This document shows, in pieces, positions 42,278-55,341 of a DNA stretch of 64,000 nucleotides (within the stretch, counting starts at the first letter, position 1; every line of letters starts with the position of its first letter). The notes beneath the pieces are model-generated. The model saw only the letters and a program-made list of their open reading frames with translations, was not told where the DNA came from and made no database searches. Made by a program: the position numbers and the translations under genes. Source of the DNA: an uncultured delta proteobacterium (GTDB taxonomy: Bacteria > Desulfobacterota > RBG-13-43-22); NCBI GenBank assembly GCA_963790475.1, contig CAWBOS010000010.1:1600001-1664000 (forward strand). Reading direction: 5' to 3'.

Positions 42278-42548
42278 ATAGATCCCTTATTTTTGATGTC
42301 TCTCAATGGGATCTCAAACTGTTGTCTCGGTCCGACCCAATGCCATTAACTTAAGGATAAGCACTTTAATTACAATAAGTTATCTTATTTTCTGACTTAC
42401 CCATCACTTCCCCTTTTTCCCTCAATCCTTTTTGTTTTCTCTGGATTCCCCGATTTTTTTCTTGACAAATGTCAGTTTATATAATTAGTATTACTGTAAT
42501 AACAACTTACTTGACTATCAATTCCTTATCCCTTAGGAGGCTCTTTCC

Positions 42549-42914
42549 ATGAAAAAAGAGGATCTTAAAGAAGTCCTTCTTCAAGTCATTGAACTTCAGC
42601 TTGATTATCAGTTACGGGCTATTCGCCAGCTTCAAGGAAAACCGGAGATTGAACCTGTCATTTCTCCTCGAAAGGGAAGAAGACGTCAGTCTCTTGTCGA
42701 TTTATCCATTAATTTACTTACTGAAAATAGGAAACCCTTACATGTCAATGATCTCGTCCAACTTCTCCAACAACGTTTCGGACGTCTCACCGACCGGGAC
42801 ACCTTGTCCAGTGCCTTGGCCAAAAAGGCTCGCCAGGGCATTCTGCTTAAACAGACCGCTCCGGCCACATTTTCTCTCATCAAAGGAAAGGAGAAAACCC
42901 ATGTCAAAACCTGA
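42549..42914 (+). CDS. Small winged-HTH protein inside the IS4 element
   Basis: SD AGGAGG; N-terminal coiled coil, then LLTENRKPLHVNDLVQLL..DTLSSALAK..APATFSL (HARE-HTH-like). Confidence 0.65.
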   Translation: MKKEDLKEVLLQVIELQLDYQLRAIRQLQGKPEIEPVISPRKGRRRQSLVDLSINLLTENRKPLHVNDLVQLLQQRFGRLTDRDTLSSALAKKARQGILLKQTAPATFSLIKGKEKTHVKT

Positions 42915-44263
42915 TCTACGATTGCTTACTCAATGGCTCGATCCAGCTCTGGTGTCCAGGCTGGAAGACCGACGGTATCTGAAAAATGAATGGCGCCGTC
43001 ATCGCAAATTGGCCACCCTGGAAACGCTCTGGCTGATGTTGGCTGTGTCGTTGGATACCCATCGTTCCAGCCTCCACGAGATCCTCCGCTTGGCTACGGG
43101 ACATCTCGGACATCAAATGGTCTATTTCCGTGGCCGCTTTCTGCAAAGCCCGGGCCCGTTTTTCCCCTGGAGGCTTTATCCTGGGTTTATGGCGTCTCTG
43201 GTCTCCCGACTGCAAAATGCCTGCAAGGACCAACACCGTCGTTGGCATGGGTTGCGCCTGCTGGCCAGCGACAAGACCACTCTCGCCTTACCCGAATCAA
43301 CATCCCTTTACCAATGTTTCGGTGCCCACAAAGGCCAGCAGGGATTGGGGCCGATTGCCGTCGAACTTTGTTGCCTCTTTGATCTGATCAGTCGTGCTCC
43401 CCTTCGATTCGTCTTCGACAAAATCTGTACCTCGGAGCACAAGCTCATCCGCAAATTCATCCAATACCTTAAAAAGGGGGATCTGCTTCTGTTGGACAAC
43501 GGCTTTTACAACCACGCCACTTTCAACAAAATCCTCTCTCGGCAGGCCCACTTCATCATTCCCACTAAGACGACTAACCGTCCCCAAGTAATCCAAGCCC
43601 TCGGCCCAGGAGATTATCTTTGCCAGATCACCGACTCCACCGATAAAACCACTCTTACCGTCCGGGTTGTTTTTGTTTATCGAAACGGCTTTCGCCGGCG
43701 CCGTCTGGTCACCTCTCTTTTAGACCCCTTCCTTTTCCCCGTTTCAGAACTGGCCAATCTCTACCACCTGCGTTGGGACATCGAGACCTTCTATCGCGAT
43801 TTTAAGCACACCCTGAAAGCCACTTCCTGGCATTGTAAATCTCCCACCTCTTTTCATCAGGAACTCCTGGTGCACATGATTGCCCTGTGCCTCATCCGCC
43901 TGGCCATGCTCGAAGCCAGTTGTTTGGCCAACCTCACCGTCGCTCAACTTAGCTTTTCCCGTGCGCTCACGGAGACCCGTTTATTTTTAAAACTTTTATT
44001 GTCTACGGCCGAGGTTTTACTCTGGTCTTCCCTCTACGCAGCCTTTGTGCTATGTTGCTCTCGTCATCGTGTCCAATGCAAACCAGACCGGCACTTTCCC
44101 CGTGACCGACAGCATATATCGAAAAAAAAGCCGTGGCGTCGTCGAGAAACGCCGTCCAGGACGAAGACGTAATCCTGCACGTATGTATACCTCAAATCCG
44201 GATATTGTTATTAAATCCGAAACCATAAAGGATAGTAAAGACAGAGTTTTTCTCTTAAGTTAA
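42901..44263 (+). CDS. IS4-family DDE transposase (several single-base indels)
   Basis: LLASDKT, LLLDNGF, YHLRWDIETFYRDFK (YREK-like); out-of-frame SVAAFCKAR motif; stop TTAAGTTAA lies inside the right TIR. Confidence 0.85.
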
Positions 44264-48487: not shown

Positions 48488-49432
48488 CTAGGCAATCGCT
48501 TTGATTCGCAATTTATCAAGGTCCATTTCGCCGAGACCGTGCCGATAGGCATTGCCAATCATCAGAATCTCTTTCGGGTGACGGCCAAGGAACCGGCAAC
48601 AAAAGGCGTCCAAACTCACCCGATTCAGTGATGCCGCTATGATATCGGCCCTTCCCAACTTGCCCGGCCCGGAAGGGCCATTCTCGGTTAAAAACTCGGT
48701 GGCATCAGAGATGCAAAGATCCGGCTTGCACACGAGATTGAGGTCGGCGATGCATTGTGAAAGATGTTCGACATCGCCCATTGAACTAACCTTCTTGAGG
48801 GACCCGATATGGAAACGGATATTGGTGGAAAAAGGGCACAACCCCATCATGTTCTTCAAGGTTCCGGTAATATGCACGCCGCGATGCTGCTTGGTTTTAG
48901 CGATGTTGATAAAGACATCGCAGGTCAACAATTCCTTGCTCACCCTGGCCTGCTTGAGCAAGATTCCGCCGGGGATATCCCTTGGGACATGATCACCGCT
49001 TTCAGGCTTCAGGCTCTTAATGGCGGCAGCATATTTCCCTGCCAAAGCCGATCGTTCCCAGTAATTTTTATGCGGGTTTTTTAAGTAGCAAATCTCCTTT
49101 GCGCCGGCATCGAGGCACATTTGCATAACGGCCAAGGCAATATCCGGGTTGACCGACGCCCCGAAGTGCTTAAAGGGCGAATTCACCAAAAGCCCCACGC
49201 GATCCCCTCGGCGTACAAACGACGCTATTCCGCCCAATGGTTCCACAGCGCGAAGCGTATTGGCAAAGTAATCTCTGCCTTTCACGGCAACAACATCCGG
49301 TTTTAACGTTTGCCCAAGCGCCCCCGTCGGGGTGATTCCCATAAGACGCCAAAAGACGTCATCGCCCACCAGGGTCCCGGCGCCCAAAAGGGCGGCCTTT
49401 CTCAGAAAAGATCGACGACTTATTTTTTTCAC
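48488..49432 (-). CDS. Tat-exported DUF362 Fe-S protein
   Basis: SRRSFLR twin-Arg signal, KTKQH, TGTLKNMMG, NGPSG. Confidence 0.85.
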   Translation of the reverse strand: MKKISRRSFLRKAALLGAGTLVGDDVFWRLMGITPTGALGQTLKPDVVAVKGRDYFANTLRAVEPLGGIASFVRRGDRVGLLVNSPFKHFGASVNPDIALAVMQMCLDAGAKEICYLKNPHKNYWERSALAGKYAAAIKSLKPESGDHVPRDIPGGILLKQARVSKELLTCDVFINIAKTKQHRGVHITGTLKNMMGLCPFSTNIRFHIGSLKKVSSMGDVEHLSQCIADLNLVCKPDLCISDATEFLTENGPSGPGKLGRADIIAASLNRVSLDAFCCRFLGRHPKEILMIGNAYRHGLGEMDLDKLRIKAIA

Positions 49433-49481
49433 GGGTCTGGTCCTCAGTTATTATTAAAAAAACCCTTTTTGCGGTACAAAC

Positions 49482-49545
49482 CACTAACACAAGCGTCACC
49501 CGGAGCCGGCTGTTTCGGCGATCGGGTGCACGCGTTTGGTTAGCG
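49482..49545 (-). other. attC site (cassette 4)
   Basis: Minus strand CGCTAAC..GCGTGCACCCGATCGCCGAAACAGCCGGCTCCGGGTGACGC..GTTAGTG, overlapping the stop codon of the upstream gene. Confidence 0.85.
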
Positions 49546-50085
49546 GGTTTTCTCATCTTTACCCGTTCCGTCTACGTTACCTATGCCGTACTTGTGGGGC
49601 TCCATGTGCTTGACTTCCTCGGTATGAGCAAAAAGGATAGACGCCAGCAACGTTGTATTGATTTGAAAGAACGTTTTTATGTTCTTTATGCTGTCCATCG
49701 CATCCCTCGGCGGACTCGTGCTTGTCAGTGTTTTGAGCTGAAGGCATTTATCCCTAATACGCTGGGTCTCGAAATTGATACCTTCGAAAGAATGGGCGAA
49801 GTCGTTCCTGATGTTTTTGATAAGCTTCAGGTCTTCAAATTCACTTTGCTCTAGTAGACCTAAATAATAGGCGAGGTTGATTTTAGCGCTCATTGTGGAA
49901 AGGGGTGACATTCCATCAAATAAATCCCTTTCTACCGACTGGTGGTCAATCAGGAAAGCAAGAAGGAGTCGTTCCAACAGCTCTTCGAGGAGAGCGCTTG
50001 ATACTATCGCCGAAGCCCGGTCAGTTTGCTTAAACACCTCCTCAAAAGTCCGGTTCAATTGATCACCAAAACTACCCTCCGACAT
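49540..50085 (-). CDS. MtlR-like HEPN-domain protein (gene cassette)
   Basis: TDRASAIV..LEELL, PLSTMSAKI..AYYLGLL, IRNDFAH (Rx4H). Confidence 0.75.
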   Translation of the reverse strand: MSEGSFGDQLNRTFEEVFKQTDRASAIVSSALLEELLERLLLAFLIDHQSVERDLFDGMSPLSTMSAKINLAYYLGLLEQSEFEDLKLIKNIRNDFAHSFEGINFETQRIRDKCLQLKTLTSTSPPRDAMDSIKNIKTFFQINTTLLASILFAHTEEVKHMEPHKYGIGNVDGTGKDEKTR

Positions 50086-50115
50086 CGCAACCTCTTAATT
50101 GAATGTTTACCGCTG

Positions 50116-50376
50116 CTACCTGTGTGTCCCTTCGGTCAGCCGAATTCCTGTGGCGGTGCCAAGATGGAGTTTTCCTGACCTGTTGGGTGTCCGTTCGATC
50201 TCATATTTTGCTCCGCATTGGCATTGGACTCGGTACTCTGCATCACCCGTTCGGTTTCCCAAAAGTTCACGGCATTCGACGCAAAGCCACGCAGCGTTAT
50301 TGCCCCAAACCAGCGCTACAGAATCCTTGAACGGAAGTCCCTCACGGTTCTTAACAAATGTCCTCGTGGTGTTCAT
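50116..50376 (-). CDS. Small Zn-ribbon-like hypothetical protein (gene cassette)
   Basis: CVEC..CQC; SD GGAG just after the cassette start GTTAGCG. Confidence 0.6.
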   Translation of the reverse strand: MNTTRTFVKNREGLPFKDSVALVWGNNAAWLCVECRELLGNRTGDAEYRVQCQCGAKYEIERTPNRSGKLHLGTATGIRLTEGTHR

Positions 50377-50389
50377 TTCTTCTATTCTC

Positions 50390-50478
50390 CGCTAACGTTC
50401 GGAGTGAGCCGCTTCGGGTTGGCCGCAGAGCGAAGCGGCGCGGCTAACCCGAAGCGGCTCTCGACTCCGTTGTTGGAT
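50390..50478 (-). other. attC site (cassette 3)
   Basis: Minus strand ATCCAAC..GGAGTCGAGAGCCGCTTCGGGTT..AACCCGAAGCGGCTCACTCC..GTTAGCG, a long imperfect hairpin. Confidence 0.9.
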
Positions 50479-51110
50479 CATTTCTTGCCGTCTCTCTTCT
50501 CGATCTGTTCCTTCTTTCCCGGTGGCAGAGAATCATAGAGTGTGTCGATCTGCTTGGGTTGCGTGATCATGGCATCTGCAATGAAGTTGACCAACCTGGC
50601 GAGATGGACGGCGGTCTCGGGGTCGTCGCGCAAGTCAATCTCTCCAGGATGCACAGCGTCATTCCCAACAACGCGGACAATGTCGAGGCTCTTCTGAATG
50701 CGGGGATTAAGGCCCTTCTGGACCAGAGCGGCAATGTCTTGGTTGATGTTCTTGCCCGGCTCGCCAAGGTGAGCACAGAGCTTCTGGATGCAAAGACGGA
50801 GCAGCGCGGCGGCACCACGGGGGGACCGGTTGACAATGTTTCGAGCTTCCTCGAAGTCCCGTCGAATGTCTTCTGGGAGATCTGGATTCGGCATAGGCGC
50901 AGTGGATGAATCCGGGAACACCATGTTGCCTGCCCACCAGATGCTGTACTTAGAGCAGTGGCTACACTGGCACACGTGCAGGCCCTTGACCAATAAATGA
51001 TTACTGGGGATCCAGCACCCGTCGCCCCAGACCTGTCTGGCGTACGGGTTGCAGAAAGGGCAGTTAAAGGATGTTCCTTGGAACTTCGGCGGTGTAAACG
51101 GTTGAGTCAT
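50478..51110 (-). CDS. DUF4145 (HEPN-type) protein with N-terminal Zn ribbon (gene cassette)
   Basis: CPFC..CSHC, SPRGAAALLRLCIQKLC, IVRVVGNDAVH. Confidence 0.82.
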   Translation of the reverse strand: MTQPFTPPKFQGTSFNCPFCNPYARQVWGDGCWIPSNHLLVKGLHVCQCSHCSKYSIWWAGNMVFPDSSTAPMPNPDLPEDIRRDFEEARNIVNRSPRGAAALLRLCIQKLCAHLGEPGKNINQDIAALVQKGLNPRIQKSLDIVRVVGNDAVHPGEIDLRDDPETAVHLARLVNFIADAMITQPKQIDTLYDSLPPGKKEQIEKRDGKK

Positions 51111-51127
51111 CTATCATTCCTCTCTTG

Positions 51128-51184
51128 ATCCAACGCCTGAGTTAAGCCGCGCCGCGAGGCGTCGGCTTGAACGAAATGTTCAAG
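51128..51184 (-). other. attC site (cassette 2)
   Basis: ATCCAACGCCTGAGTTAAGCCGCGCC..GGCGTCGGCTTGAACGAAATGTTCAAG. Confidence 0.85.
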
Positions 51185-51339
51185 TAAGCCGCTGTGCGGC
51201 AGAACCGTTTCTATGTAATCCTTCCTGAAAAATCTCTTCAGAAGTCCATTCGATAGGACGCATACCGTTTAGTCCAGTATGATACTTCAAACCCCCTCCT
51301 CATAGGAAGGGGAAATCCATCCTTATAAGGAGAAGTATC

Positions 51340-52227
51340 ATGATGAACAATTGGTATGACAAAACGATCCAAGCTCTTCAACTCAACGGTAAAGGGGAAC
51401 GCACCCAGGAAGCCTACGCCCGCTCCGTCCGCATGCTCACCCAGTTTTATAACAAAACTCCTGATTCCATCAGCGAACAGGAACTTCAGGATTATTTTCT
51501 TCAACGGAAAAATGTCGATAAGTGGGCCCCCAATACCATGCGGATATGCTATTGCGGCATACGCTTCTTTTTTGAAAAAGTACTCCAGCGCAACTGGCAC
51601 ATCCTCGGAATCCTCCGAGCCCAAACCGAACGAAGACTCCCGGCCGTCTTGAGCGTTGAAGAAGTCCGTAAACTCCTGGCCCAGGTTAAAACCTTCCAGA
51701 ACTATGCCTATCTTTCCACCGTCTACTCCTGCGGTCTGAGACTTCAGGAGGGACTCTATCTCGAAGTCTCCGATATCGATAGTGACCGGATGATGATCCA
51801 TATCCACCGGGGCAAAGGCGCCAAAGATCGCTATGTCCCTCTCCCCCAATCCACTCTCAGCCTGCTCCGTCGCTATTGGGTCACCCACCGTCATCCTGCC
51901 CTCCTTTTTCCAGCCATCGGCCGAACCAGACAAGGCGTCAAGGAAGCTAAAACGCCCATGGCCAAAAGCAGTGTCCAAGGGGCCTTCCGTCGAGCCAAGT
52001 TTGCTGCCGGAATCCACAAAAAAATGGTCTCTGTTCATACCCTCCGGCACTCTTATGCCACCCATCTGCTTGAGGCCGGCGTCAACCTTCGGGTCATCCA
52101 AAGATACATGGGCCACGGCCAATTGGAAACGACCATGGTCTATTTGCATCTCACTCAAAAAGGTCAAGAGGATGCCTGCCAGTTGATCAATCAGGTGATG
52201 GGGGGCTTAGACCATGACCACCATTAA
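51340..52227 (+). CDS. Tyrosine recombinase (phage integrase family)
   Basis: YSCGLRLQE, GKGAKDR, HTLRHSYATHLLEAG, MGH..TTMVY; lacks the IntI-specific insertion. Confidence 0.93.
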   Translation: MMNNWYDKTIQALQLNGKGERTQEAYARSVRMLTQFYNKTPDSISEQELQDYFLQRKNVDKWAPNTMRICYCGIRFFFEKVLQRNWHILGILRAQTERRLPAVLSVEEVRKLLAQVKTFQNYAYLSTVYSCGLRLQEGLYLEVSDIDSDRMMIHIHRGKGAKDRYVPLPQSTLSLLRRYWVTHRHPALLFPAIGRTRQGVKEAKTPMAKSSVQGAFRRAKFAAGIHKKMVSVHTLRHSYATHLLEAGVNLRVIQRYMGHGQLETTMVYLHLTQKGQEDACQLINQVMGGLDHDHH

Positions 52228-53314
52228 TGAGATCTTTCGAACCTTCGGCCCCCAATACCTGGGGCGCTACGGTCAGACTATGCCTAAAATACACCGCCAG
52301 GTCATCGAGGCCATCATCGGCTGCCGTACCGAAGCCTGCGGCCTCGTCCTATACCAGTGTGAAAAATGCGGCCAGTCCCATCTGATCTATCGTTCCTGCG
52401 GCAATCGCCATTGCCCCACTTGTCAACACCATAAAACCCAACAGTGGTTGGATAAACAGATAAAGCATCAACTTCCCGGACATCATTTCATGATGACCTT
52501 TACCGTCCCCGAACAACTGCGCCGCTTTATACGGAAAAATCAGAGGGTGGCTTATTCCGCCTTGTTCAAAGCCTCCTCCGAGGCCATCAAAAAGCTGGCT
52601 CCGGACGAAAAATACATCGGCGGTGATCTTCCGGGATTCCTCGGGGTCCTTCATACCTGGGGACGTACCTTGGAGTATCACCCCCATATCCATTACATCG
52701 TCCCCGGCGGAGCCCTCTCCACCACTGACGGTCTCTGGCATCCCTCAAGGATCGATTTTTATCTCCCGGTCAGAGCCCTCTCCAAAATCTTTAAGGCCAA
52801 GTTCAAAAAGGCCATGAAAGAAGTCGGTCTCTTCGAGCAAATCCCTACTGAGGTCTGGCAGATCGACTGGAACGTCAACTCTCAAGCCGTAGGTTCCTCC
52901 GAAGCCAGCCTAAAATACCTCGCCCCTTATGTCTTCAAAGTGGCGATCTCCAATTCCCGCATCCTCAAGGTGGAAAACAACACCGTCTTCTTCCGATACA
53001 CCAAACCTCATAGCCATCGGTTGAGGACTATGGCCCTCGGTTCCATGGAATTCCTCCGCCGTTTCCTTCAGCATGTCCTGCCCACCGGATTCATGAAAAT
53101 CCGCTATTACGGCTTCATGAACCCCAATTGCTCGGTCCCTTTCGAAAGAATATCTACCCTCATTCAAATGGCCTATTCCTTCGTCTTGAAGATGCCCGAA
53201 TATCAGCAAAGCCCTTCTCCAACTCCCATCTGTCCCAACTGCGGCGGAACCCTCAGATACCTCGTATCCTTCATCCCCGGTCTCACTCCTCAATTGACCC
53301 TGGACAGTTCTTGA
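52214..53314 (+). CDS. IS91-family (Y2/HUH) transposase
   Basis: Zn-binding CEKC..SCGNRHCPTC, FTVP, LHTWG..HPHIH (HUH), YLAPY (YxxxY), RYYG. Confidence 0.93.
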   Translation: MTTINEIFRTFGPQYLGRYGQTMPKIHRQVIEAIIGCRTEACGLVLYQCEKCGQSHLIYRSCGNRHCPTCQHHKTQQWLDKQIKHQLPGHHFMMTFTVPEQLRRFIRKNQRVAYSALFKASSEAIKKLAPDEKYIGGDLPGFLGVLHTWGRTLEYHPHIHYIVPGGALSTTDGLWHPSRIDFYLPVRALSKIFKAKFKKAMKEVGLFEQIPTEVWQIDWNVNSQAVGSSEASLKYLAPYVFKVAISNSRILKVENNTVFFRYTKPHSHRLRTMALGSMEFLRRFLQHVLPTGFMKIRYYGFMNPNCSVPFERISTLIQMAYSFVLKMPEYQQSPSPTPICPNCGGTLRYLVSFIPGLTPQLTLDSS

Positions 53315-53570
53315 ACGGTCTTCCTAAGACCCCCTTCTTAAATCCAAAATGTCAAAGAACTAAAGCGGTAGGGACTCCTATGTCCAGAGTCCTAAAAATC
53401 GATGGGTGCTTTTATCTGATCAGTGAAAAAAGGTATTGCCGTGCTTCGTAAGGTAAGTTCTTAGTCCTTTTCCTGTTCCCTGAGTCTATTTATAAGCTTT
53501 TTATCCTCTCCTCAGTTCGTCCCCCTTCGAACCTTTACCCTTTATAGATCGTCATTATTTATCCGGGCTT

Positions 53571-53627
53571 CTTGAACAATGGATTGAAACGACCTTTCAG
53601 GATCGTCTCAATCCTTATTGGTTAGGC
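53571..53627 (-). other. attC site (cassette 1)
   Basis: Minus strand GCCTAACCAATAAGGATTGAGACGATCCTG-AA-AGGTCGTTTCAATCCATTGTTCAAG. Confidence 0.82.
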
Positions 53628-54029
53628 CTTTGTGTCATGACTAGCACGGGCGATGTAAGGCCTGGGACGGAATCGAAAAAGAACAAAGATGCCAGTAATG
53701 AACAAAGTGGCACCCAGCCAAGAAAGTTGAGAACTTGGCGCTGCCGTAAAAAAGTGAAAATACACCATCGGCGCAACGCCGCTCAGGCCACTAACCGCCC
53801 TGCCTTTTGAGCCGTCCCGCCATGTCCACCCCAGCACACTGATCCACATCTTGGCTCGGGCATGCACTCTTGAACGTGCAGAGCCTTTGGACGGAGATTT
53901 CGGCGATGGCGGATGAGTTCTAGGCTCACTCACATCTCGGCGAGCCACCACCTGATGCGCGGCACAGCCGTTGACAATCCGCCGGATGCCACAACTCATC
54001 ACCGCGTCATCAGCGCGAACACACCCCAA
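53622..54029 (-). CDS. Hypothetical or degenerate membrane ORF in cassette 1
   Basis: Hydrophobic C-terminus; stop overlaps the attC R'' box; start uncertain. Confidence 0.3.
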   Translation of the reverse strand: MGCVRADDAVMSCGIRRIVNGCAAHQVVARRDVSEPRTHPPSPKSPSKGSARSRVHARAKMWISVLGWTWRDGSKGRAVSGLSGVAPMVYFHFFTAAPSSQLSWLGATLFITGIFVLFRFRPRPYIARASHDTKA

Positions 54030-54745
54030 CCTAGGTATTCACGTGTGTAAGCGGCGTAGCGCTCGGGTTCCGAGGTCAGTTTGGCTCGAACATCTTTCGC
54101 GAACTCGTCGTCGGGATTAGCTTCAAGCCATCGGCGCATGGTGAGCCATTTAGCCGCCTCGTATCTGTCCCAGCCGTCTTGGTCTGCCAAAACCATTTCC
54201 ACGACGTCGTAGTCAAGGTGGCCGAAAGACGCGAGAAGTTCTGGAAGCGTGAGAAAGTCGGAGATTGAGCCGGCAAGACACCCCTTGGCAACATCTTCCG
54301 TCGGCGGTAACTGCCGCCAGTAGGGCTCGCCGATGAGGATGATCCCTCCGGTGCGGAGGCTCTGCGCCAGAAGCTCGATAGTGCCGATGACTCCCCCAGC
54401 GATCCATGTAGCACCGACACAGGCTGCCACACCGGCCTTGTCGTCCGAGACGTAGCCGGTAGCATCGCCATGGATGAACTTGACTTGATCGGCGACGCCG
54501 AGTTCTTCAGCGCGGAGTTTCGCTTGCTCGGTGAACAACTGGCTCATGTCGATGCCGGTGCCGATGACTCCGTAATCGCGTGCCCAGGTGCACAGCATCT
54601 CCCCCGAACCGCTGCCGAGGTCGAGCACTCGGGTCCCCGTTTCCAGACGCAGCGCCGCGCCGAGAGTGGCGAGCTTTTCGGGTGTGAACGGGTTATGGAT
54701 GCGGTGAGCACTTTCGGTGATGTTGAATATCCGTGGAATGTCCAT
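53999..54745 (-). CDS. Class I SAM-dependent methyltransferase (YjhP-like), gene cassette
   Basis: VLDLGSGSG motif I, IHNP, CVGATWI, IGEPYW; SD AAGGAG after the cassette start GTTAGGC. Confidence 0.9.
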   Translation of the reverse strand: MDIPRIFNITESAHRIHNPFTPEKLATLGAALRLETGTRVLDLGSGSGEMLCTWARDYGVIGTGIDMSQLFTEQAKLRAEELGVADQVKFIHGDATGYVSDDKAGVAACVGATWIAGGVIGTIELLAQSLRTGGIILIGEPYWRQLPPTEDVAKGCLAGSISDFLTLPELLASFGHLDYDVVEMVLADQDGWDRYEAAKWLTMRRWLEANPDDEFAKDVRAKLTSEPERYAAYTREYLGWGVFALMTR

Positions 54746-54786
54746 TTCGGGAAATCTCCTTATGGGTGTGAATAGATTCGGTCACG

Positions 54787-54830
54787 GCCTAACAAAATAT
54801 TGAATAGTTTCTTTTCAATTACCAAGAAAT
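54787..54830 (-). other. attI-like site heading the cassette array
   Basis: Minus strand TTCAAT-ATTTT-GTTAGGC (L/R-type simple site) in AT-rich DNA, with no complementary R'' box. Confidence 0.5.
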
Positions 54831-55341
54831 TTTAGAATTGATCATTTAAACAATAAATAATTGAACCATATTTATTAGATATTATTATTTTAATTTAGTT
54901 GTTCAACACCTGATTTCTATCCTTATGGGGTTTTCCGTTCAATTCGAACATACCCTGATCCTGTTTCCAAATGAGGGTCAGAACCAGGGTAAAAATTTGG
55001 ATCTTACCGGAACTGGGTGTTTTCTTGGGTGGATCTTTTGAGGCATGGAGCTGGGCCATAAATCTCCTCAAGATCTGAAGGAAGAGGGTTGTTGGATTGA
55101 GGGTGCTGGGGACTTATTAACATAACCGCCTAATTTGTCAAGAAATTAGTTTTTGCCGTTGGCAATATTCGACATTAGATCAAATAGGTTTCGTGGTTCG
55201 ACCCCGATTTGCACGCCCCAATTTCTTATCTTTACAAAGAGAAATAATTTATCTAATTTAAATTATTTAAATTAAAAATGACCGTAAGACCGGTCAAAAC
55301 ATTTCTAAAATGATGATATACTACAGAAAGGAGAATCTGGT

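Follow-up and report, generated by a model that had tools for sequence, protein, structure and literature searches.

What is a gene pair of tyrosine recombinase and IS91-family transposase doing inside an array of integron cassettes, and which enzyme brought it there? The pair lies in the window analysed here, a stretch of 64,000 nucleotides (G000:C10:1600001-1664000; all window coordinates count from its first letter). The surrounding minus-strand array is small and consists of a methyltransferase gene, a DUF4145 gene, an attC, two ORFs and the last attC. A sequence-only reading had described the pair as a unit formatted as a cassette and lying exactly between two attC sites.

True ends of the element and the interrupted attC

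The features of the locus are listed in Table 1. Part of the earlier description held: ORFs and domains agree with two plus-strand genes running antisense to the cassettes, the heptamers CTTGAAC and GTTCAAG were present at the positions named, and the extended inverted repeat was found at 51177-51190 and 53578-53566. The boundaries were different. BLAST against the genome detected a copy at C11:97891-100338 that equals window 51178-53625 at 2447 of 2448 positions, with one base different. This copy interrupts an HTH-cupin regulator gene at a place where attC is absent, and the two halves of the gene product (...GVSVTTI and HKLERSEM...) rejoin in frame with one shared G and without duplication. 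Because the C11 copy spans the hairpin at 53571-53621 and fixes both ends, the mobile unit is 51179-53621; the hairpin is part of the element and is not a second attC. The true ends thus lie elsewhere than at the cassette boundaries, and the supposed right-hand attC is the terminal hairpin of the element itself. When the element was excised in silico, one ordinary attC remained; its R'' box GCCTAAC (minus strand, 53627-53621) is the complement of the GTTAGGC that opens the methyltransferase cassette (54793-54787). Therefore, the element sits within a single attC, which it split at the G|TT of the R'' box (the vertical line marks the crossover), in antisense orientation. Recent movement was shown in this genome, where intI was not found.

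Table 1. Features of the array and of the inserted element, in window coordinates.
Feature	Position	Strand	Description and basis
Mobile element	51179..53621, 2443 bp	+	G|TT crossover at either end, without target duplication
Tyrosine recombinase gene	51340..52227	+	295 aa, IntI-related, without IntI insertion; R134, K159, H233, R236, H259, Y268; PF13495 + PF00589 (domain search)
IS91-family Y2 HUH transposase gene	52214..53314	+	366 aa, zinc domain, H158-x-H160, Y235-x3-Y239; PF14319 + PF04986 (domain search)
Left end of element	51179..51200	+	TTCAAG (R'-like half), one unpaired T, AAGCC outer arm, GCCGC/GCGGC hairpin (51188-51200); terIS-like position
Right end of element	53566..53621	+	GGCTT arm, CTTGAAC (R''-like), 3 nt, GGATTGA...TCAATCC stem, variable loop, 6 nt, G; oriIS-like position
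Target attC, larger piece	51128..51178	-	R' GTTGGAT (51134-51128), L', terminal stem, L'', 5-nt spacer, crossover G; attC-arm score 29
Target attC, displaced R'' piece	53622..53627	-	GCCTAA, complementary to cassette head at 54793-54787
First cassette gene	53999..54745	-	class I SAM methyltransferase, whose attC is the interrupted one; ORF and domain search
Cassette head	54787..54807	-	GTTAGGC, AAT-5 nt before it; putative attI-like simple site; sequence only
DUF4145 cassette gene	50478..51110	-	ORF and domain search
Intact attC	50390..50478	-	attC search; fold against shuffles z -7.7
Two-ORF cassette	49540..50376	-	86-aa unknown (50376-50116) and MtlR-like 181 aa (50085-49540); ORF and domain search
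Intact attC, last of the array	49482..49545	-	attC search and fold

The geometry of attI sites was used to read the cassette head as attI-like. The methyltransferase stop is separated from R'' by 378 nt (53622-53999), in which a short minus-strand frame, perhaps a remnant of another cassette gene, stops at the TAA within R''. A repeat with about a dozen BLAST matches elsewhere in the genome lies at 55010-55150, 220 nt upstream of the first cassette. At 42589-44172, a DDE transposase (PF01609) region has a 121-aa ORF upstream and a near 27-nt inverted repeat at 42329/44280. An Rfam scan of the whole window gave no matches, the promoter and terminator scan performed at chance level with no promoter found for the recombinase gene, and no native attC of the methyltransferase cassette was found in plasmids. 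Contigs of four of the 20 listed runs over 49300-55200 contained neither a circle junction nor an empty-site joint, and are uninformative either way as contigs drop rare forms.

Four decayed copies in the same genome (C6:609749-610439, C12:796917-796983, C13:214051-214077 and C10:140858-141262) terminate at the same point as the element, with right junctions G|TTGGGT, G|TTAGCT, G|TTCGGC and G|TTAGGC. Three of the four come after antisense cassette-like genes (Mrr endonuclease, GNAT and nuclease-HhH), and the C13 piece resembles an attC half joined to the last 27 nt of the element via a common GATCG. A candidate relic right end at 54901-54929 was rejected, as its loose pattern matches six times in the genome and one to four times in each of five shuffles.

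Enzymes and end architecture

The transposase gene overlaps the recombinase gene by 14 nt. The transposase scored 373.8 bits against NF033538 (cut-off 125), and H158, H160, Y235 and Y239 were kept in 75 of 75 relatives. Among 59 recombinase relatives, R134, K159 and R236 were retained in all 59, H259 in 58, and H233 and Y268 in 55 each. The recombinase scored 175.8 against TIGR02249, under the cut-off of 265, and positions 178-234 of that model were unmatched, meaning that the IntI insertion is missing; its closest PDB match was IntI4 (E 4e-33). An intact recombinase ORF was found upstream of 84 of the 96 transposase ORFs having room there, and dN/dS was 0.07-0.16 (10 pairs) and 0.11-0.19 (11 pairs). 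Judged from these comparisons, both enzymes were shown to be intact, with purifying selection acting on them. The 30 IntI sequences of a quick 70-row tree formed a clade (support 100) that was united with 31 element recombinases at SH-aLRT 87; monophyly of the element recombinases had a support of 55, so that IntI may be nested within them.

The left-end layout was retained in relatives down to 30% transposase identity. At the right end, relatives carry the outer arm, an R''-like 7-mer, 3 nt, a stem with variable loop and 6-7 nt before G|TT, and the stem-loop measured 28-72 nt among correctly parsed relatives. Subterminal palindromes were found at both ends, and the hairpins were more stable than shuffles (z -3.6 and -4.65 for 53560-53630). 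Furthermore, changes in the left 6-mer are matched by compensatory changes in the R''-like box, giving three classes (TTCAAG/CTTGAA, TTGAAC/GTTCAA and TTGGAC/GTCCAA), with single mismatches in some elements (for example L032, L033, L045, L199 and L237). This covariation rests on ends read by hand, because automatic picking of right ends chose many wrong sites; the shuffle statistics of the automatic picks (36/60 and 45/81) include wrong picks.

When the two ends were joined, they formed one long hairpin of -20.3 kcal/mol (68 nt, bottom strand), compared with -10.8 kcal/mol (57 nt) for the hybrid site proposed in the sequence-only reading. In circular form the junction has the cassette trait of complementary R'' and R' boxes around a hairpin, and one arm reads AAC-5 nt-ATT as in attC. 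Canonical attC sites, with which the intact sites of the window agree, have a 5/6-nt spacer and an L-box extrahelical base; the junction departs from this geometry with a second spacer arm of 8 nt instead of 6 (5/8) and without that extrahelical base. The suggestion that the element mimics attC cores was thus upheld by an attC-like hairpin at the right end whose R''-like box covaries with the left end. At the right ends of L039 and L033 the whole terminal hairpin is tandemly duplicated, and 4-9 nt are duplicated at the right junction of L016, L048, L052 and L201; both are possibly footprints of re-insertion at an element's own end.

Targets of related elements

Related loci were gathered through the transposase (63), through the left-end motif in metagenomes (at least 120) and from one viral sequence, with attC not being a criterion. 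Together with three loci of the same genome they gave, among the matches listed, 173 left ends and 163 distinct flanks, in which the base at -1 was G in 152, A in 7 and C in 4. Of the 156 left flanks with a length of 100 nt or more, 69 had an attC arm (score of at least 20), compared with 73 of 2500 GTT sites taken as controls in these loci, the related loci being non-independent samples; GTT sites from the genome gave 14 of 2500. At score 18, arms were found at 62 of 108 metagenome and viral flanks, 11 of 45 genome loci, 0 of 24 in two multicopy MAGs and 1 of 3 in the own genome. A stricter detector, used first and insensitive in that it overlooked sites plain by eye, found 46 of 156 flanks (controls: 251 of 6271 and 581 of 20000), a number that dropped to 27 when the junction was shifted by 1 nt and to 1-10 at larger shifts. 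The second detector was slack, since moving the junction by 1-4 nt still yielded 65-77 matches at score 18, and therefore it indicates that an attC arm is nearby and not its register. The enrichment bears out the earlier suggestion that such elements target attC cores. The preference for attC is genuine but not exclusive, with about half of the insertions elsewhere.

Orientation was called from ORF direction, because L-box geometry alone (42 bottom, 18 top and 9 ties among the 69 attC flanks) gave no settled answer. An antisense ORF starts just past the attC in 45 of these flanks and a sense ORF stops there in 5, with neither in 19. Likewise, an antisense ORF stops at the right junction in 11 of 17 attC-positive elements vs 6 of 35 attC-negative ones.

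Distant members were picked by hand (6 among many records listed). In NZ_LT985243.1, a relative with 30% transposase identity interrupts, in a class 1 integron, the attC of aadA1, again at the G|TT of R'' and in antisense, and in NZ_CP065043.1 another comes after a long attC-like arm. Two class 1 integrons on E. coli plasmids carry relatives at attC sites. The element of locus L200 had no match among E. coli complete genomes, and among the best 5000 plasmid records no other covers 80% of the query. A relative with ISAzo26-type ends in NZ_AP018145.1 sits in sense orientation at R' of an intact attC, just as a cassette would, between aac(6')-IIa and aadA4 and beside intI1. Thus, IntI may move such elements at times, and to this extent the idea of movement by IntI stood. 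Dependence on it did not, because no intI over the TIGR02249 cut-off was found in the window's genome (100% complete, 9.7% contaminated) or in G301, G302 and G264, with 10, 13 and 2 copies of the element; three of these four genomes are MAG assemblies and G264 is one contig, 99% complete. Genome G303 carries intI and G304 an intI fragment. Among 300 other genomes of the phylum, an intI match was present in 17 of the 35 that have a transposase relative and in 89 of the 265 that do not. No left flank was common to two copies within a genome (four genomes with 2, 3, 10 and 13 copies), a comparison that also bears on one-ended transposition past terIS and can miss rare events; there is therefore no sign of cassette capture, and the proposed mobilisation of neighbouring cassettes has no support.

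Right junctions were resolved in 65 elements (2 of 67 skipped) and read GTT in 59. The base at -1 agreed between the two junctions (G/G 59, A/A 3, G/A 2, A/G 1; Fisher p 9e-4), one of the G/A cases being misparsed and the other truncated, and two of the A/A elements also carry an R'' box altered to CTTGAAT. L018 has A on the left and G on the right, and its nine sister copies are G/G, which places the crossover between G and TT, the crossover position of IntI. A second conserved position was A at -9, found in 63 of 69 attC flanks, in the C11 target, and in 21 of 33 flanks without an attC-like motif (background 0.26, p 5e-6); these 33 are the 48 low-scoring flanks minus 15 with an attC-like motif or C at -1. 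We take A at -9 followed by G|WT to be the spacing of an attI-type simple site. Two multicopy MAGs break the -9 rule (PWM above control in 0 of 11 and 0 of 13).

In a Nitrospirota MAG, all ten copies (L016-L022, L024, L037 and L039) lie in a repeated intergenic motif, roughly RAATTCAGG|TTGAAANTT, which precedes a GTTNC-N6-GNAAC palindrome. Seven non-autonomous miniatures of 322-503 bp (L085, L096, L101, L109, L113, L124 and L152) retain both ends, and four of them score at least 20 for the attC arm. In L219/L241 (G045:C34), a relative follows an intI gene directly, points the same way and may occupy attI.

Candidate mechanisms and known systems

We give about an even chance (roughly 0.5) to a division of labour in which the transposase makes a circle with an attC-like fold and the element's recombinase inserts it at an attI-like G|TT. 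The Y2 HUH transposase would start rolling-circle copying at the right end, and the bottom strand would be let go as a single-stranded circle, as IS91 does; the functional IS91 intermediate is a bottom-strand circle (PMC13181058), which we count in favour. The circle junction would fold attC-like, with the R box CTTGAAC/GTTCAAG, an unpaired spacer, an inner stem and a variable loop. The IntI-related recombinase would then cut this folded junction at AA|C, and the partner for joining would be a simple site in double-stranded DNA that resembles attI (A at -9 followed by G|WT); the product would be resolved by replication, as with integron cassettes. Antisense insertion at R'' would follow because the L''-5 nt-R'' half of a double-stranded attC would act as an attI-like simple site facing backwards; other targets would be true attI sites or look-alikes within ordinary genes. 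The G|TT crossover, the concordant -1 base, the bipartite targets, the pairing of the ends, the IntI4 kinship and the kept ORF pair all count for this proposal. Against it, IntI handles folded attC through an insertion that the element recombinase does not have, the junction has a 5/8-nt spacer and no L-box extrahelical base, the -9 rule fails in the two multicopy MAGs, and the node with IntI reached only SH-aLRT 87 in a quick tree. In addition, the -1 concordance hangs on three A/A cases, two of them from related genomes, and has exceptions in L018, L201 and possibly L198.

The -1 concordance would also be given by base-pair-guided HUH targeting, and the rival that survives best is that excision and insertion are both the work of the Y2 transposase, as in IS91, but under a changed target rule (5'-NAA(C), bottom strand), in which the box at the hairpin foot perhaps recognises the target by base pairing. 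The recombinase would then just resolve multimers or cointegrates, or regulate termination like Orf121. IS91 circles are inserted by TnpA alone (PMC13181058), which speaks for this rival and against a role of the recombinase in insertion; the NF033538 equivalog cut-off for IS91 is passed, target duplication is absent, both ends carry hairpins, the end boundaries by themselves do not tell a nick from a recombinase crossover, and the short right-junction duplications of L016, L039 and L048 could be replication slips. However, CTTG, GTTC or GTCC, the targets of four characterised IS91 members (PMC13181058), was found beside the right junction on the bottom strand, in either register, in none of the 65 resolved elements. 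This leaves the link to GTTC/CTTG tetranucleotides drawn by the sequence-only reading unsupported, and because of it we file the element as an IS91-related subgroup and not as canonical IS91. A second conserved position 8 bp off also suits a recombinase dimer better than a tetranucleotide, and the match to the integron core would have to be coincidence or convergence. We consider insertion by the transposase alone rather unlikely, if still a serious competitor.

Less probable again, and in our view doubtful, is that the recombinase excises and integrates between the two junctions while the HUH protein serves as a Rep whose action at an internal origin makes or amplifies single-stranded circles. 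Both junctions being G|TT, the internal and conserved hairpin, and a right flank that is loose for an HUH nick site (TAAC 41, CAAC 12, others 12 of 65) agree with this, but the integrated left junction has no nearby partner arm for folding and the IS91-type ori/ter polarity already accounts for circle release. Movement as a cassette by host IntI, with the ability to carry neighbours, is very improbable and as the main route already contradicted, since the moved unit does not run from attC to attC, copies share no flanks, four multicopy genomes gave no intI, and antisense insertion at R'' is contrary to the bottom-strand selectivity of IntI (PMC5027507), against which stand the NZ_AP018145.1 case and the intI counts in the phylum.

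The gene pair and the kinship of its recombinase with IntI are already in print, and attC targeting is only hinted at. The ISAzo26 subgroup of IS91 (NC_006824.1, L198) has the same gene pair, order and end layout, with ends TTGGAC/GTCCAA; ISShvi3, ISSod25 and ISWz1 (ISfinder) are other recombinase-carrying members. Subgroup recombinases have been placed among an integron-like group without the IntI insertion in 10.1101/542381, which by its own account found no IS interrupting attC; IS91 goes unmentioned in the relevant parts of the journal version (PMC8138268). The nearest printed hint is one sentence in PMC9229058 on ISShvi3 adjoining attC. No published description of R'' targeting, the attC-like circle junction or the G|TT rule was found, with subscription journals, ISfinder/TnCentral and supplements outside the scope of the search.

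The element resembles IS91, IS801, IS1294 and IS1294b in its Y2 HUH transposase, palindromic ends, lack of target duplication and probable single-stranded circle (PMC13181058), but its target is a bipartite G|WT instead of CTTG/GTTC/GTCC, and its upstream gene is a tyrosine recombinase instead of orf121. With integron cassettes it shares the G|TT core start, followed by genes and then a hairpin with complementary R boxes and a variable terminal structure, as well as crossover position and first-base identity; IntI requires only an identical first nucleotide between partners (PMC2811028). In contrast to a cassette, it is autonomous, has the 5/8-nt spacer and carries its extrahelical base outside the R box, and its recombinase differs from IntI in lacking the insertion and in scoring below the IntI cut-off. 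This is a real attC-homing, recombinase-carrying IS91-related element whose joined ends fold like attC, and possibly an integron cassette in self-moving form. Somewhat more tentatively than the mechanism itself, we suggest self-mobile cassettes that obtain their single-stranded circle from the HUH enzyme and rely on a sister of IntI to insert the folded circle junction into double-stranded attI-like sites. If true, this would offer a living model of how a rolling-circle transposon gave rise to IntI, to attC hairpins and to the recombination of single strands in integrons. Should the recombinase be able to integrate a folded single-stranded junction although it lacks the IntI insertion, two genes and a 70-base site would suffice to test how attC recombination arose. 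It would also give a role to the unexplained recombinase of the IS91 subgroup and join rolling-circle transposition to integron recombination. For array annotation, insertion at R'' separates cassette and attC and leads to one spurious attC being called.

Such elements would be a third kind of parasite of cassette arrays, class 1 integrons included. Group IIC-attC introns also home to attC, at R'' in antisense and also in CALINs (PMC7923331), and IS1111-attC elements home to attC as well (cited in PMC9229058); the former use a reverse transcriptase and the latter an IS110-type recombinase, neither of which the element has. The intron site TTGT/T is one base from the element's G|TT. At the left junctions of L098, L141 and L193 the base at -1 is C and not G, with a group II intron reverse transcriptase upstream in L098, a partial motif in L141 and none seen in L193; in cases of the L098 type, the G|TT of the element may itself have served as an intron target.
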